Source: Candidatus Nanohalarchaeota archaeon
Lineage (GTDB): Archaea; Nanohalarchaeota; Nanosalinia; Nanosalinales; JAFCCC01
DNA: 64,000 nucleotides
Reading direction: 5' to 3'
Assembly (NCBI GenBank): GCA_017610385.1
Contig: JAFCCC010000001.1
Coordinates: forward strand, 1-64,000
Shown here: in pieces, positions 12,724 to 60,540 of the stretch
Layout: every line of letters starts with the position of its first letter
How positions within the stretch are numbered: the first letter of the stretch is position 1
Notes under the pieces: generated by a model
The model's input: only the letters and a program-made list of their open reading frames with translations
The model's database searches: none
Told to the model about the DNA's origin: nothing
Made by a program: the position numbers and the translations under genes

Positions 12724-12758
12724 AGCTATCTTTTCTAAAATTTCATATATAAAATAAT

Positions 12759-13018
12759 GGGAATGCCAGAAAATGGACTTCTTTGAAAATCAGGTTAATC
12801 CATATCTTTTCTCTCCTCCGCGACCCCACAAACATTCAAAATACAGTTTATGGCTGCTCCCGTCAAGGTCTGACCCATTCGCTGCAAGTTAAATCCTGCA
12901 GGACGGAGAATCAACGTCCAGATATGGGCCATCTCCTCGAAGTAGCCTCTTCTCTGACTTCGACTCCGCTATAGAGGGTTTGCGGTAACAAGTTTCCCCT
13001 AAAAACCCAGTCTATCCC
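12759..13018 (-). ncRNA. ffs: archaeal SRP (7S) RNA
   Basis: helix 8 GGUCAGACCU-UGAC-GGGAGCAGCC; helix 6 CUGCAGG/CUUGCAG; paired ends GGGA/UCCC; TATA upstream. Confidence 0.88.
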
Positions 13019-13195
13019 AATGTAAAAATTCATCAGCATTTATATAACCTTTATGCCTGATTTTAGAAACAAATTTAAATCTGAATACAAAGTTATAGAA
13101 TAGGACAATGAAAAGTGATTGCCTTTGTCGGTGCCATTAACGGTCAAATTCTTTTATCAAGTTTAAAAACTAAAAAATCAATTAATTTAAAAAAT

Positions 13196-15111: not shown

Positions 15112-15363
15112 ATGGAAGATCTTCCCGAAGGCAAATTAATAGTATTTTGGATTGCGGGTTCTTTAGCAATCGTTTTTGGTGCATGGATTGCGGGTCATGT
15201 AGAAACAACCTTGGGTGTCACCACAGGAAGTTATGCATTAGCAATTATAATTGCAACACTATTGATAATGTTCGGAGGACTTTCTTGGATTGCGGTAGCA
15301 GTTACTGTAGCGCAGGAAAAGGAATTAGAAATAGAACGCGCAAAAAAACACAGAAAACATTAA
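15112..15363 (+). CDS. small 2-TM membrane protein
   Basis: two hydrophobic helices; TATA upstream. Confidence 0.75.
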   Translation: MEDLPEGKLIVFWIAGSLAIVFGAWIAGHVETTLGVTTGSYALAIIIATLLIMFGGLSWIAVAVTVAQEKELEIERAKKHRKH

Positions 15364-15527
15364 TTTTTATTTCTATAAAGATCTCTTTTTACCATTTCTG
15401 CAATATTCGTACCTAAAAATCCTTTAATAAAATTTACCTGTTTTGCTTTTTCTTCTTCTGTTGGGGACATATTCATAATTTTTACAGATTCCTATAAAAA
15501 TGTTCGTGTTATAGATAAATGTAATAT

Positions 15528-15763
15528 AGCCCGGTAGTGTAGTGGCCAAATAATCTTTTGATTAGGCTAGGCATAGGGGGTTTTGGGCGAACTTCCGTTC
15601 AAAACAGTGAGCACAGTTGTGCGGTGATCGGAAAAATCCCTCTGACTCAGGTTCGAATTCGAACTGCTGTCAGTTCGATCAATAAAGGCGACATTCATTT
15701 AGTGAAGTCTCCTTACCATACTTTTAATGACTGACACATTCAACGAAAATCCTGGCCGGGCTA
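15528..15763 (+). tRNA. tRNA-Gln(UUG) with three introns: 15550-15570 (21/22), 15587-15636 (37/38), 15658-15749 (59/60)
   Basis: spliced sequence AGCCCGGTAGTGTAGTGGCCAA|GCATAGGGGGTTTTGG|TCCCTCTGACTCAGGTTCGAA|TCCTGGCCGGGCTA folds as a cloverleaf; each junction forms a BHB. Confidence 0.92.
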
Positions 15764-15786
15764 TTCTTTTATTTTTAATACTTAGA

Positions 15787-15804
15787 ACTCCGAGCGCTCG
15801 GAGT
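15787..15804. repeat. perfect 18-bp palindrome (REP-like); related copy at about 58103-58122
   Basis: ACTCCGAGCGCTCGGAGT. Confidence 0.8.
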
Positions 15805-15843
15805 ACGAGTAACTGAATTACTCTATAGTGTTTACCTATAGAC

Positions 15844-15876
15844 CTCTCTGATTTGCGCGGTAAAAGGATGTGGGGG
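15844..15876 (+). repeat. intergenic motif, copy R1
   Basis: CTCTCTGATTTGCGCGGTAAAAGGATGTGGGGG. Confidence 0.65.
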
Positions 15877-15953
15877 AATCTGGTTTCGGAGTTTGAGGGG
15901 AAGCGTATGGATTCATTACAAAAGATTAAAAACCTTTAGAACAATGCTAAAGT

Positions 15954-16402
15954 ATGAGCCTTAACTATGACACTCTAAGGCGAACCGCATCTGGTATCTG
16001 GGAAAAATTAAAGTTCCATGTTATTTTCTTGCAGGAGCATCCCTGGCGGCTATCTTAGCAGGACTATCTGATTTAGATAAGACATATCGAGAGGAAATAA
16101 ATCAGAATTTAGTTAGAATGAGACTACTTGCAGATTCTGTAATTTCAACAACAATAAACTTAAATGGAAATCCAAATGATCTTACTTGGGAAGAACAAAG
16201 GGCTTTGCTATCCGGAATAAAATTTGAAGGGTTACAAATAGAAGGAACACCTATAGAAGTATTGCCTTGGTATTCTAAAGATGTTAAGGGATTTCAAACT
16301 CCAGAATATGGTCTGATGGTTGTGTACGGGAACAATAGACAAATTATATCCCCTGAAGTTGCTGAAGCATATCTTCAAGAAAATAATTCTTCTTCCAAAT
16401 AA
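15954..16402 (+). pseudogene. hypothetical membrane-anchored protein, frameshifted at an A-tract near 16002-16007
   Basis: MSLNYDTLRRTASGIWEK joins IKVPCYFLAGASLAAILAG...MRLLADS in the -1 frame. Confidence 0.55.
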
Positions 16403-39589: not shown

Positions 39590-39675
39590 GCCTTGGTAGC
39601 TTAGCTGGTAGAGCGCGTGGCTGTTAAAATTTTGCAGTAACCACGAGGTCGCAGGTTCAAGTCCTGCCCAAGGCG
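39590..39675 (+). tRNA. tRNA-Asn(GUU) with 13-nt intron 39627-39639 (37/38)
   Basis: cloverleaf; BHB CTGT/GCAG with TA|A bulges. Confidence 0.95.
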
Positions 39676-39732
39676 CACTGTTCTTAAAAATAAAACTATT
39701 ACATTTTTATCTCATTGATTTCAATTAGATGT

Positions 39733-45370: not shown

Positions 45371-45508
45371 GCCACAGTGGCTCAATTGGCAGAGCAGCTG
45401 CTTCGTATTGTAATGAGGAGGACACTTATTCCGATAAAATATGAGGACGTGAACACCCCCCGAACAAGAATCAGCAGCAGGTTGTGGGTTCAACTCCCAT
45501 CTGTGGCT
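45371..45508 (+). tRNA. tRNA-Thr(CGU) with 65-nt intron 45408-45472 (37/38)
   Basis: acceptor GCCACAG/CTGTGGC; GCTGC-TTCGTA|A-GCAGC; U73; BHB with one mismatch. Confidence 0.93.
45413..45463 (+). ncRNA. box C/D sRNA inside the tRNA-Thr intron
   Basis: ATGAGGA-11nt-CCGA-6nt-ATGAGGA-12nt-CCGA. Confidence 0.8.
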
Positions 45509-47607: not shown

Positions 47608-47721
47608 GCGGGGGTAGCCAAGTGGTCAACGGCGATAGGCTCAAGTACTGAATTTGAGATCTGATTTAATGAAGAAACCTATTCCCATAGGGGTTCGTCG
47701 GTTCGAATCCGGCCTCCCGCA
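47608..47721 (+). tRNA. tRNA-Leu(CAA) with 31-nt intron 47646-47676 (37/38)
   Basis: acceptor GCGGGGG/CTCCCGC; long variable arm; ATAGG-CTCAAG|A-CCTAT. Confidence 0.93.
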
Positions 47722-47847
47722 CAATCCCAAAATCTTGATTTAATTCTAATTGGCGCCGAAAAAGTGAACGAACTATCAAATAGATTAAGAAAAGATGGCT
47801 TTAGTGTTATTCAAAAAGAAATACTGGGATGGCTTGTGAATTTATTC

Positions 47848-58275: not shown

Positions 58276-60540
58276 ATGAAAATCGAATCCTTATTAGGTA
58301 TGAATTTACCAAAATACGTTATTGATAACTTAAAGAAAAACAACATAGTTGAATTAAATCCACCACAAGAAAAAGCAATATCTTTGGGTGTGTTAACTGG
58401 TCAAAGCTTAATTGTGTCCACTCCAACCGCGTCAGGAAAAACTTTAATTGCGACTTTGGCTATTTCAAAACTCTTTACTGATTCTAAAGGAAAAGCCATT
58501 TACATAGTTCCATTAAAAGCCCTGGCTAATGAAAAATATAACTACTTCAAAGAGTTTTTTAACTCTCAAAAGATAAATGTTGGAATTTCAACAGGAGATT
58601 TTGATTCAAAAAGCCCACAGTTAGCAGATAAAGACCTAATTATTGCTACTGTAGAACGTGTTGATTCTTTGTTAAGACATAATGTTCCTTGGTTGTCTCA
58701 GGTCAAACTAGTAATAGCTGATGAGATACACCTTTTAAATGACCGTTCCCGAGGCCCAACATTAGAAGTTGCTTTAACCCGTTTAAAAGAAATTATAGAT
58801 TTTCAATTTTTAGGATTAAGCGCCACCATTAAAAATTCAGAGGAGCTTGCCGCTTGGCTAAATTGCAAAGTAATTAACAGCGAATATCGTCCAGTGGAAT
58901 TAGAAGAAGGTATTTTATATAATAATGAAATAGAGTTTTATTCTACTAAAAAAGATAAATCAGAATTTCAAAGAGGTAGTAATTTTTTGAAAGAGGGATG
59001 TAGGTCACAAAAAATCATCAAAGAATTTAACAGCGGCTTATTTGACTTAATAAAAGATACTTTAAAAAAAGATAAACAGGCATTGGTTTTTGTAAGAAGT
59101 AGAAGAAGTGGGGAAAGTACTGCTAAGAAATCAACTAAGATTTCACAATCGTTTTTGAATAAAAAGGAATCTGAAAAACTAATGCAAATGTCACTCAAAG
59201 CAGAAAATGTGCTTTCTACCCCTACTGCTCAGTGTAAAAATTTATCATACTGTTTAAAATCTGGTGTGGCATTTCATCATGCGGGTTTATTAAACGAACA
59301 AAAAAGAATAATTGAGACTGCGTTTAGAGAAGGATTAATTAAAATAATTTTTGCGACTCCGACACTTGCAATGGGTGTTTCTTTACCAGCTTATCGCGTA
59401 ATAATACAGGATTTACGTCGATATAGCAATTATGGCTTGAATTTTATCCCTGTTTTAGAATATAAACAATTTGCGGGGCGAGCGGGGCGACCAGAGCACC
59501 ATATGACAGGAGAATCGATTTGTATTGCAAAAGATCTTAAAATGAAAGAAGAAATTAAAAAAAGATATATTTTTGGCGATGTTGAAAATATTTATTCTAA
59601 ATTGGCTGTGGAACCAATTCTCAGAACGCATATTCTAAGTCTAATTGCTACGCATTCTGTTTCAAGTCAAGCAGAATTGCTGGATTTTTTTTCTAAAACC
59701 TTTTACGCATATCAGTATCGCAATTTAAGCAAAATAGAGACTCATTTAGAAAATATTATCAATAACCTAACAGAATATGGATTTATAAAACAAGGGAAAG
59801 AATTAGAAGCAGATTTTTTAGGTAAACGTGTCTCTGAATTATATATAGATCCATACACTGCCCAGTACCTCTTGAGTAATTTAGAGCCACATAAAGACCA
59901 TCAAATTCATGAAATTGGTCTTTTAAAGCTCCTTTGTGATTCAATAGAAATGAAACCGCTCTTATCCCTAAAAAAAGCAGATTACGCATACTTAGAAGGA
60001 TTATTAGAAGGAAGTGAACAAGTCCTGCTGGGAACCATTCCAAAAGAATGGGATTATAATTATGAGCAGTTTTTAAGATCATTCAAAACCGCATTGGCAA
60101 TACATGAATGGATAAATGAACAAGGAGAGGATAAATTAATGCAAACTTACGGAGTATCTCCCGGCAGCCTAAGAGTTAAATCAGAAATACTAAATTGGCT
60201 ATTATACGCGTGTAAGGAATTTTGTTCTATTAAAAAGTGGAATAATCTCTATTCACAAATTGAGTTATTAAGAATAAGATTAAAATACGGTGTAAAAGCA
60301 GAATTGCTTCCATTATTGAAATTTAGAGGGATTGGACGAGTGCGGGCGCGAAAATTATTTGATAAAAACATTAAAAACTCTCAGGATTTACTCAATTGCT
60401 CATTTGAGCGTTTAAAAACAATTGTTGGTAAACAGACTGCAATAAATATTAAAAACGAACTTGGTCAACGTCATTTTGATAGAGAAAATGTATTAGATTA
60501 CTTTAAAAATACTTCGGTGGACGATAAAATGCCGCTCTAA
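58276..60540 (+). CDS. hel308: Ski2-like helicase Hel308
   Basis: PTASGKT, DEIH, LSAT, FHHAGL, GRAGRP, GIGRVRAR. Confidence 0.95.
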   Translation: MKIESLLGMNLPKYVIDNLKKNNIVELNPPQEKAISLGVLTGQSLIVSTPTASGKTLIATLAISKLFTDSKGKAIYIVPLKALANEKYNYFKEFFNSQKINVGISTGDFDSKSPQLADKDLIIATVERVDSLLRHNVPWLSQVKLVIADEIHLLNDRSRGPTLEVALTRLKEIIDFQFLGLSATIKNSEELAAWLNCKVINSEYRPVELEEGILYNNEIEFYSTKKDKSEFQRGSNFLKEGCRSQKIIKEFNSGLFDLIKDTLKKDKQALVFVRSRRSGESTAKKSTKISQSFLNKKESEKLMQMSLKAENVLSTPTAQCKNLSYCLKSGVAFHHAGLLNEQKRIIETAFREGLIKIIFATPTLAMGVSLPAYRVIIQDLRRYSNYGLNFIPVLEYKQFAGRAGRPEHHMTGESICIAKDLKMKEEIKKRYIFGDVENIYSKLAVEPILRTHILSLIATHSVSSQAELLDFFSKTFYAYQYRNLSKIETHLENIINNLTEYGFIKQGKELEADFLGKRVSELYIDPYTAQYLLSNLEPHKDHQIHEIGLLKLLCDSIEMKPLLSLKKADYAYLEGLLEGSEQVLLGTIPKEWDYNYEQFLRSFKTALAIHEWINEQGEDKLMQTYGVSPGSLRVKSEILNWLLYACKEFCSIKKWNNLYSQIELLRIRLKYGVKAELLPLLKFRGIGRVRARKLFDKNIKNSQDLLNCSFERLKTIVGKQTAINIKNELGQRHFDRENVLDYFKNTSVDDKMPL

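Follow-up and report, generated by a model that had tools for sequence, protein, structure and literature searches.

The closest described systems are archaeal box C/D RNAs that direct 2'-O-methylation of nucleotide (nt) 34 of tRNAs. In euryarchaea the tRNA-Trp intron carries a full C/D RNA guiding the 2'-O-methylated residues Cm34 and Um39; according to the available portions of two reports, this guide is known as sR50 in Pyrococcus, its activity was shown in vitro for Haloferax volcanii, and action in trans was concluded from the in vitro work on the Haloferax pre-tRNA-Trp (PMC7994747, PMC2584109). The same portions describe nt 34 of tRNA-Leu(CAA), Leu(UAA), Met and Trp as a C/D target in Pyrococcus (PMC7994747), with separate small RNAs (sRNAs) for Leu-CAA, Leu-UAA and Met (PMC7994747, PMC2584109). 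Further trans-acting guides to nt 34 are reported, in the excerpts at hand, for Haloferax tRNA-Met and, as a prediction, for U34 of tRNA-Gln(UUG) in Sulfolobus acidocaldarius. In the accessible part of another report, the elongator tRNA-Met of Nanoarchaeum equitans is said to contain a stable intron of 66 nt that includes a 6-bp GC hairpin in addition to box D and a variant of box C, and this intron was proposed as a possible C/D sRNA (Randau 2012, PMC3491384). Here, we describe a tRNA-Gln(UUG) gene in the first 64,000 nucleotides of contig JAFCCC010000001.1 (assembly GCA_017610385.1; hereafter the window) from Candidatus Nanohalarchaeota archaeon. Our current hypothesis, to which we assign a probability of roughly 0.75, is that the anticodon intron of this gene is a natural C/D-type guide with a single kink-turn (K-turn) and a single guide, which would act in cis to direct 2'-O-methylation of U34 (Um34) before splicing.

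The genome to which the window belongs (G000; 788 kb in 18 contigs, 93.5% complete, 32% G+C, with the window on contig C13) has its tRNA-Gln(UUG) gene at 15528-15763 on the forward strand, split by three introns (Table 1). Both gene ends form the tRNA-Gln acceptor stem, and removal of all three introns in silico gives a 74-nt cloverleaf that ARAGORN calls as tRNA-Gln(ttg). Nothing less yields a tRNA, and neither ARAGORN nor Rfam calls one in the unspliced sequence. The predicted splicing thus leaves a canonical tRNA, as required of archaeal introns excised at a bulge-helix-bulge (BHB) structure. The boundaries of the D-loop and T-loop introns were set by us, the former from the predicted fold, and then checked by the spliced product. 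The 3' end of the anticodon intron is ambiguous by one base. A sequence-only reading that preceded this analysis had placed this intron at 15587-15636, which is one of the two registers that ARAGORN accepts; the intron ends at 15635 if A15636 is taken as nt 38. The D-loop and T-loop introns were absent from that reading.

Re-reading of the anticodon intron recovered every element that the sequence-only reading had reported, each where it had been placed. The guide CGTTCAAAAC lies antiparallel to the target strand GTTTTGGGCG, which spans the anticodon and the exon-intron junction, and the two can form ten contiguous pairs, of which eight are Watson-Crick and two G.U. The fifth base upstream of the GTGA box, A15602, pairs with T15583, which is U34, also as had been read. 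A loop of 6 nt connects target and guide. On the 3' side of the guide, the GTGA box and the C'-like strand flank a short hairpin and could form the pairs G15626.A15610 and A15627.G15609 (sheared), T15628.T15608 (U.U) and C15629-G15607. At the sequence level, the intron therefore has a K-turn from a C-type and a D-type box, with tandem sheared G.A pairs and a 3-nt bulge, and an antisense element directly upstream of the D-type box with its target at the fifth position. A search for other targets of the guide was uninformative, since its 9-mer, with one mismatch allowed, occurs hundreds of times in the AT-rich G000. A strict search of 70 genomes for a trans-acting C/D guide against U34 of tRNA-Gln gave five matches, none of which had sRNA features.

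Table 1. Window coordinates of the tRNA-Gln(UUG) gene, of the elements in and around its anticodon intron, and of guide-like elements in two further tRNA introns.
Feature	Position	Strand	Basis
tRNA-Gln(UUG) exons	15528-15549, 15571-15586, 15636-15657, 15750-15763	+	In-silico splicing, ARAGORN
D-loop intron, 21 nt, between nt 21 and 22	15550-15570	+	Predicted fold helix/AAA bulge/helix; correct spliced product
Anticodon intron, 49 nt, canonical 37/38 position	15587-15635	+	In-silico splicing, ARAGORN
T-loop intron, 92 nt, between nt 59 and 60, outside the guide	15658-15749	+	Correct spliced product
Target strand GTTTTGGGCG: G31, U32-U35, G36, G37 and first three intron bases (U34 = 15583)	15580-15589	+	Sequence; guide-paired in minimum-energy folds
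Guide CGTTCAAAAC, box positions 11 to 2	15596-15605	+	Sequence; 10-pair run at box+5 in register test
Spacer base A15606, box position 1, between guide and GTGA	15606	+	Sequence
D'-like box GTGA	15607-15610	+	Sequence; CTGA at same place in G001 orthologue
K-turn canonical stem: GCAC (15611-14), AGTT loop, GTGC (15619-22)	15611-15622	+	RNAfold, pattern scan
C'-like strand: bulge GGT (15623-25), then GATCG (15626-30)	15623-15630	+	Sequence
3' strand of alternative BHB fold: GGAA or GAAA opposite U32-U35; A-rich bulge with 3' splice site	15630-15636	+	Constrained folds
Intron guide element of tRNA-Leu(CAA) (gene 47608-47722)	47653-47675	+	Run of 7 at box+5 only
Full two-box C/D-like RNA in intron of tRNA-Thr(CGU) (gene 45371-45508)	45408-45467	+	Sequence

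The relation between the guide helix and splicing was addressed by folding. The minimum-energy fold of the anticodon arm alone (RNAfold, -21.1 kcal/mol) consists of the guide helix and the GCAC/GTGC hairpin, and both are also present in the minimum-energy fold of the whole precursor (z = -3.9). BHB-like conformers of the arm reached at best -14.0 kcal/mol in constrained folds, as compared to -21.1 for the guide conformer. A standard BHB has a 4-bp helix between two bulges of 3 nt at the splice sites; what can be drawn here is a relaxed BHB with bulges GGG and AAA, which is without a convincing inner helix h'. Because any splice structure uses the same U32-U35 that the guide pairs with, the two folds appear to be mutually exclusive, and the modelling supports the sequence-only reading on this point. 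Splicing could then take place only after release of the guide helix, and methylation would therefore precede splicing.

Evidence from a second genome came from a comparison set of 70 genomes of the order, which is the whole phylum set searched. The GCAC/GTGC hairpin was found in only one further genome, G001, from another family. Its tRNA-Gln(UUG) has a 98-nt intron with the guide, a canonical CTGA box, GCAC, a different loop, GTGC and AATGATC, and the rest of the intron has diverged. Eight contiguous pairs are formed, U34 again lies at the fifth nucleotide upstream of the box (box+5), and the intron also has, by eye, a clean BHB with both flanking helices (hBHBh'). Guide position 11 and intron base 3 form C-G in G000, which is replaced by U-A in G001, so that both sides change; at guide position 9 and intron base 1, U.G in G000 corresponds to U-A in G001 with the U constant; and guide position 8, opposite G37, is U in G000 and C in G001. 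Covariation in homologous introns had been proposed as a check of the guide, and its outcome is positive: the K-turn and U34 at box+5 are kept in G001, and the guide pairs covary. Beyond the phylum set, the Gln K-turn pattern matched 12 stretches in a large collection of genome contigs, of which G001 was the sole relevant one and 11 were bacterial, and 10 stretches in metagenome contigs, all of them chance matches in unrelated DNA.

A similar module, consisting of a guide, NUGA, a stem-loop or short loop, and NNUGA(U), was seen in many tRNA introns of G000 and G001. For a test in which no register was picked by hand, we took 29 anticodon introns (20 from the intron-bearing tRNAs that ARAGORN found in G000 and nine from tRNAs of G001), considered every TGA, forced nt 34 opposite each guide position from 1 to 10, and recorded the contiguous run of pairs through nt 34. 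Runs of at least seven occurred at box+5 in 11 of the 29 introns, as compared to 4 of 261 cells for the nine other registers; the positives are partly orthologues and hence not independent. In G000 the runs at box+5 were 10 for Gln, 9 for Lys-UUU, 9 for Met, 8 for one Trp gene, 8 for Leu-UAA, 7 for Leu-CAA and 7 for Glu-UUC, and in G001 they were 8 for Gln, 7 for Met, 14 for Lys-UUU and 8 for Leu-UAA; Arg-UCU of G000 follows with a run of 6. The geometry of the module is also consistent across its members: if the bulge is set to 3 nt, 16 of 17 have a stem of 3 bp or more adjoining the GA, as compared to 6-8 of 17 with other bulge sizes. In tRNA-Leu(CAA), a further case in the window, the guide (47653-60) is followed by CTGA (47661-64), a 5-nt loop and TGAAGA (47670-75), and box+5 falls on C34 (47642).

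The tRNAs with a box+5 guide (Gln-UUG, Lys-UUU, Glu-UUC, Leu-UAA, Leu-CAA, Arg-UCU, Trp-CCA and Met-CAU) all decode NNR codons. No such guide was found in the introns of three Ser tRNAs, two Ala, two Thr-CGU, Pro, Asn, Gly, Arg-UCG, Ile-UAU, Glu-CUC, Lys-CUU, Phe, Tyr and the second Trp gene, nor, among the 29 introns, in any intron of a tRNA with G34 or of a four-codon-box tRNA. The G000 genes for Gln-CUG and Lys-CUU lack an anticodon intron. The sequence comparison thus places the tRNA-Gln intron in a putative guide family of tRNAs that read NNR codons.

Three loci met in this survey have features of their own. The sequence at G000:C6:4145-4296, which ARAGORN reports as Pro(agg), is by our reading tRNA-Arg(UCU), interrupted at about 29/30 by an intron in the anticodon stem and at 37/38 by a second intron, which carries the K-turn guide; the genes for 23S rRNA (C6:248-3192) and RNase P RNA (C6:3321-3594) are found shortly upstream of it. 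Two dissimilar tRNA-Trp(CCA) genes are present, at G000:C13:67127-67376 (outside the window) and C17:23520-23757, with introns of 177 and 167 nt, respectively, and the K-turn guide for C34 occurs in the C17 copy only. Lastly, a tRNA with the anticodon TAT (Ile-UAU) and introns is encoded at G000:C3:26062-26186 and also in G035 and G004, and the lineage may read AUA with this UAU tRNA.

Across the phylum, the module is most readily followed in tRNA-Met. The pattern GCTCATA, 3-33 nt, TRTGAG, NNN, TGA matched 47 of the 70 genomes and 24 of the 28 high-quality ones, and the reversed control matched 1 of 70. Among 30 tRNA-Met loci that were fetched, a stem directly follows the box in 28 and NNTGAT comes next in 24; the stem sequences vary, and the box is ATGA in 19 and CTGA in 11. 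In tRNA-Lys(UUU), introns with the module were found in G000, G001, G004, G035 and G053, which represent four families. A pattern scan for tRNA-Lys was at the level of its reversed control, with 15 of 70 genomes matched, and only the matches of G000, G004, G053 and G035 lie in tRNA-Lys. What had been read as a single case is therefore one of a family that extends to at least eight tRNAs of G000 and to most genomes of the phylum. A related observation concerns the tRNA-Thr(UGU) introns of G004 and G008, where, by eye, a one-K-turn module places box+5 on U39 and not on nt 34; its box in G004 is CCGA.

These distributions bear on an alternative in which the K-turn is real and binds L7Ae, and serves as an aid to folding or assembly only, shaping the three-intron precursor or timing the endonuclease without any methylation. 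L7Ae binds K-turns in several unrelated archaeal RNAs, the tRNA-Gln motif is without a second box pair, and the competition between guide helix and BHB could by itself serve as a timing device. Such a role would nevertheless leave unexplained the position of nt 34 at box+5 in 11/29 introns (against 4/261 cells elsewhere), the restriction to NNR-decoding tRNAs, and the tRNA-Met register kept in 47/70 genomes. We therefore regard it as quite improbable.

The motif itself, taken out of context, is no rarer than expected. In the 788 kb of G000 there are 21 matches to the pattern TGA, stem (4 bp or more), loop, stem, NNTGAT, as compared to 16-26 in ten shuffles, and three of the 21 lie in anticodon introns (Gln, Lys-UUU and Met-CAU). 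A looser genome-wide scan for guide, box and partner was abandoned as it had no discriminating power, with 807 matches against 798-821 in shuffled and 567 in reversed sequence. Both results, in a genome of only 32% G+C, are what one would expect if the element were an ordinary hairpin beside two GA dinucleotides and the antisense match an inconsequential pairing between intron and exon. Because the bare motif is at chance level, support for a guide has to be comparative, and what stands above chance in the sequences is where the motif lies, which is in an anticodon intron, the register it has there, and the fact that other tRNAs and genomes show it again. The motif and register are kept in G001 despite divergence of the rest of the intron, and the design recurs, with varying stems, in seven other tRNAs of G000 and phylum-wide. 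A chance origin thus seems scarcely credible.

Several observations besides the chance frequency of the bare motif weigh against the proposed cis-acting guide. With regard to architecture, the 49-nt intron has one box pair only and is not a two-motif C/D RNA; its boxes are non-consensus, with GTGA for CTGA and TGATCG for TGATGA, so that the second GA is missing; and the guide helix includes two adjacent G.U pairs. An Rfam search over 15300-16000 with E values up to 10 returned no relevant family, which includes the curated C/D families. The BHB, in which UUUU faces GGAA or GAAA, is weak and 7 kcal/mol less stable than the guide fold. On the comparative side, the K-turn stem is identical in the tRNA-Gln introns of G000 and G001, and hence offers no stem covariation. 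The tRNA-Gln(UUG) guide is present in 2 of the 14 genomes read (13 by script and G012 by eye); among the other 12, an anticodon intron is lacking in five and is of a different kind in seven. Within the family, Leu-CAA and Glu-UUC of G000 are the weakest cases, being K-loop-like only and without a canonical stem. It should also be noted that a single-site C/D complex, according to the portion of the study available, was active in vitro without selecting its site, and that specificity needed both motifs (Hardin and Batey 2006, PMC1635284).

The proteins that such a guide would rely on are encoded. The absence of fibrillarin and Nop5 from the genome had been named beforehand as an outcome that would speak against the guide; both are found in G000 together with L7Ae, all over the Pfam cut-offs (266 bits for fibrillarin, 121 bits for Nop5 and 100 bits for L7Ae). 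The loci are G000:C18:5379-5654 for L7Ae, C11:65994-66617 for Nop5 and C11:25296-25952 for fibrillarin. The fibrillarin and Nop5 genes are not adjacent and lie about 40 kb apart on C11. Nop5 (284 aa) is of the short Archaeoglobus fulgidus type, and its residues 78-283 align to the A. fulgidus chain 1NT2_B. We considered a Nop5 without the dimerising coiled coil, which would suit a half particle, and rejected it since the protein aligns over most of its length to 1NT2_B. Nop5 is thus expected, from its sequence, to be a dimer.

A dimeric Nop5 of this type could be common to two one-K-turn RNAs, and this is one of the points in favor of a guide that acts in trans only, with a precursor or an excised, perhaps circular intron targeting another pre-tRNA-Gln. 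The conclusion drawn for Haloferax pre-tRNA-Trp in vitro is a precedent, as far as the available portions of those reports go (PMC7994747, PMC2584109), and the tRNA-Lys guide of G001, which lies 46 nt away from its target, indicates that a tight hairpin is not required. In the tRNA-Gln precursor of G000, target and guide are separated by the 6-nt loop and pair in the minimum-energy fold, and an intramolecular helix should outcompete an intermolecular one. A guide acting exclusively in trans is therefore unlikely in our estimation, and we retain action in cis as the preferred reading.

For a cis-acting guide, the following sequence of events can be proposed. In the unspliced transcript the intron would fold back, placing ten intron bases on G31-G37 and the first three intron bases. 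On the 3' side of this helix, GUGA and GGUGAUC would close around the 4-bp hairpin into a K-turn of the internal C'/D' type, onto which L7Ae and then Nop5 and fibrillarin would assemble. Fibrillarin would methylate the 2'-OH of the base opposite the fifth guide position, which is U34. Once U32-U35 were freed from the guide, they could pair with the 3' end of the intron to give the BHB, and splicing would follow methylation. Of all this, the sequence geometry, its conservation and register and the three protein genes are observed, and the binding of the proteins, the methylation, its action in cis and the order of the steps are what we infer from them.

As for the purpose of the modification, methylation of nt 34 would likely stiffen or restrict the wobble base. 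The Elp3 C-terminal domain (PF16199) was not found in the 93.5%-complete G000, and a fragment of an NcsA-like 2-thiolase is present. On this basis it is plausible that Um34, or its 2-thiolated form s2Um34, takes the place of a wobble uridine of the xm5 type.

Another intron in the window contains a guide-like RNA of the conventional kind. The intron of tRNA-Thr(CGU) has a full C/D-like RNA in which ATGAGGA, 11-12 nt and CCGA occur twice, with variant boxes and a 4-bp terminal stem. Its D guide pairs over 11 bp with the 23S rRNA at G000:C6:2854-2864, and box+5 falls on a U whose aligned counterpart in E. coli is the first U of GGCTGTTCGCC. This E. coli U lies at 2552-2554 by annotated coordinates, depending on the annotated 5' end, and we take it to be U2552 of the A-loop, a universally methylated ribose. 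No convincing target was found for the D' guide. As a positive control, the tRNA-Thr(CGU) intron therefore indicates that C/D guides do reside in tRNA introns of this organism, that variant boxes are in use, and that a known site is recovered by the box+5 rule. Searches of G000 with strict patterns for canonical C/D sRNAs gave two candidates and none that had a terminal stem of 4 bp or longer, and were unproductive because the boxes of this organism are too variant. The sole plausible stand-alone candidate from the strict scan lies at 59229-59280 on the reverse strand of the window (ATGATGA...CTGA, 52 nt).

The remaining introns of tRNA-Gln(UUG) were compared with those of its paralogue. The tRNA-Gln(CUG) gene (G000:C9:11854-12039, reverse strand) has a D-loop and a T-loop intron and is without an anticodon intron. 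The T-loop intron of tRNA-Gln(UUG) is 98% identical to that of tRNA-Gln(CUG) (match at G000:C9:11854-11973) although the exons and D-loop introns of the two genes differ, which points to gene conversion or transfer of the intron in the recent past. Neither the T-loop nor the D-loop intron, as read by eye, offers a convincing second K-turn with which a two-motif RNA could be completed; the idea was rejected, as the flanks are not complementary.

The T-loop intron also contains a perfect hairpin of about 23 nt (CGAACTG, 4 nt, CAGTTCG and flanks) at 15659-15682, which recurs at G000:C9:173-190 and C9:11940-11957 and, with 90-100% identity, at many places in G003, G008, G014, G024, G029 and G032. 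These genomes are related only at the level of the order. The hairpin is found inside tRNA introns, namely both Gln T-loop introns and a tRNA-Asn intron of G008, where it directly follows CTGATGA, and it adjoins the 5' ends of tRNA genes at the G000 tRNA-Ala (C9:100-173) and at G008:C2:276837. Separately, the tRNA-Gln genes of the relatives G022, G007, G025, G020 and G010 are flanked by one to three extra copies of their 5' or 3' ends, which resemble scars of elements integrated at the tRNA, or pieces of split or duplicated genes. Two other RNA genes of the window are an archaeal signal recognition particle RNA at 12755-13022 on the reverse strand (Rfam, 110 bits) and, at 39590-39676 on the forward strand, a tRNA-Asn(GUU) that has a 13-nt intron if introns are allowed and is given a 4-base anticodon by ARAGORN under default settings.

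If the proposed guide is correct, intron-guided methylation would widen from tRNA-Trp to Gln, Lys, Glu, Leu, Arg-UCU, Trp and Met, a class of tRNAs whose wobble base must not misread NNY codons. This would provide a concrete function for tRNA introns in reduced DPANN genomes, and the structural switch between guide helix and BHB could order modification before splicing. The conservation of the box+5 register in nature argues that specificity is reachable without two box pairs, perhaps through the closed end of the hairpin. For annotation, it follows that a three-intron gene of this kind escapes tRNA finders and that such guides escape C/D finders. A broader and more speculative proposal, which we hold with less than even confidence, is that every tRNA for a two-codon NNR box in the phylum has its wobble ribose methylated by a hemi-C/D particle on its own intron, with the intron as a checkpoint before splicing. 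No splicing, and hence no functional tRNA, would then occur until nt 34 is modified; the particle would be a natural single-site C/D enzyme with site specificity; and there would be a selective reason both for the many tRNA introns of reduced genomes and for dispensing with Elp3.

How the tRNA-Gln intron relates to known systems can be set out as follows. The trans-acting sRNAs for nt 34 have the chemistry and position in common with the proposed guide, and largely the same tRNAs, so that Um34 in tRNA-Gln(UUG) has precedent; they differ in that each has a gene of its own and two box pairs. Engineered half-mer or single-site C/D ribonucleoproteins (RNPs), of which a half-mer crystal structure is mentioned in the available part of one report (PMC6239191), are alike in having one K-turn, one guide and the three proteins and, in the accounts as far as accessible, in being active in vitro. 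They are man-made and, in those same accounts, non-specific for the methylated site, whereas the register of the tRNA-Gln intron is conserved in nature and a loop of the same RNA closes off its duplex at the far end. Nearer to the present case is the tRNA-Met intron of N. equitans, also a DPANN archaeon, which lies in the anticodon region and likewise combines a hairpin with a single box D and a single motif resembling box C. It differs in that it was put forward as a free sRNA candidate for one tRNA, which is not Gln, with no target or register named in the part of the report available. Likened by description only, it is probably the same module as in the tRNA-Met introns of the 47 genomes. 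This intron excepted, single-K-turn intron guides, as a class or for tRNA-Gln, were not found in full-text searches of the literature.

The euryarchaeal tRNA-Trp intron remains the closest relative in principle. In both cases an anticodon intron would guide methylation of the wobble base of its own tRNA at box+5 with the same three proteins, and in both the duplex takes in intron bases, so that the precursor before splicing would be the substrate. The tRNA-Trp intron is a two-motif RNA of about 100 nt with guides for nt 34 and nt 39, whereas the tRNA-Gln intron fits a single K-turn and a single guide, directed at nt 34 and no other, into 49 nt; it further differs in its non-consensus boxes and in its target, U34 of Gln(UUG). 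That it represents a single-K-turn, single-guide version of the tRNA-Trp arrangement was the proposal of the sequence-only reading, and the geometry, the machinery, the covariation and the family all lend support to it. Taken together, the proposed single-K-turn intron guide would be a new form of the tRNA-Trp intron principle, and the principle itself was already known.

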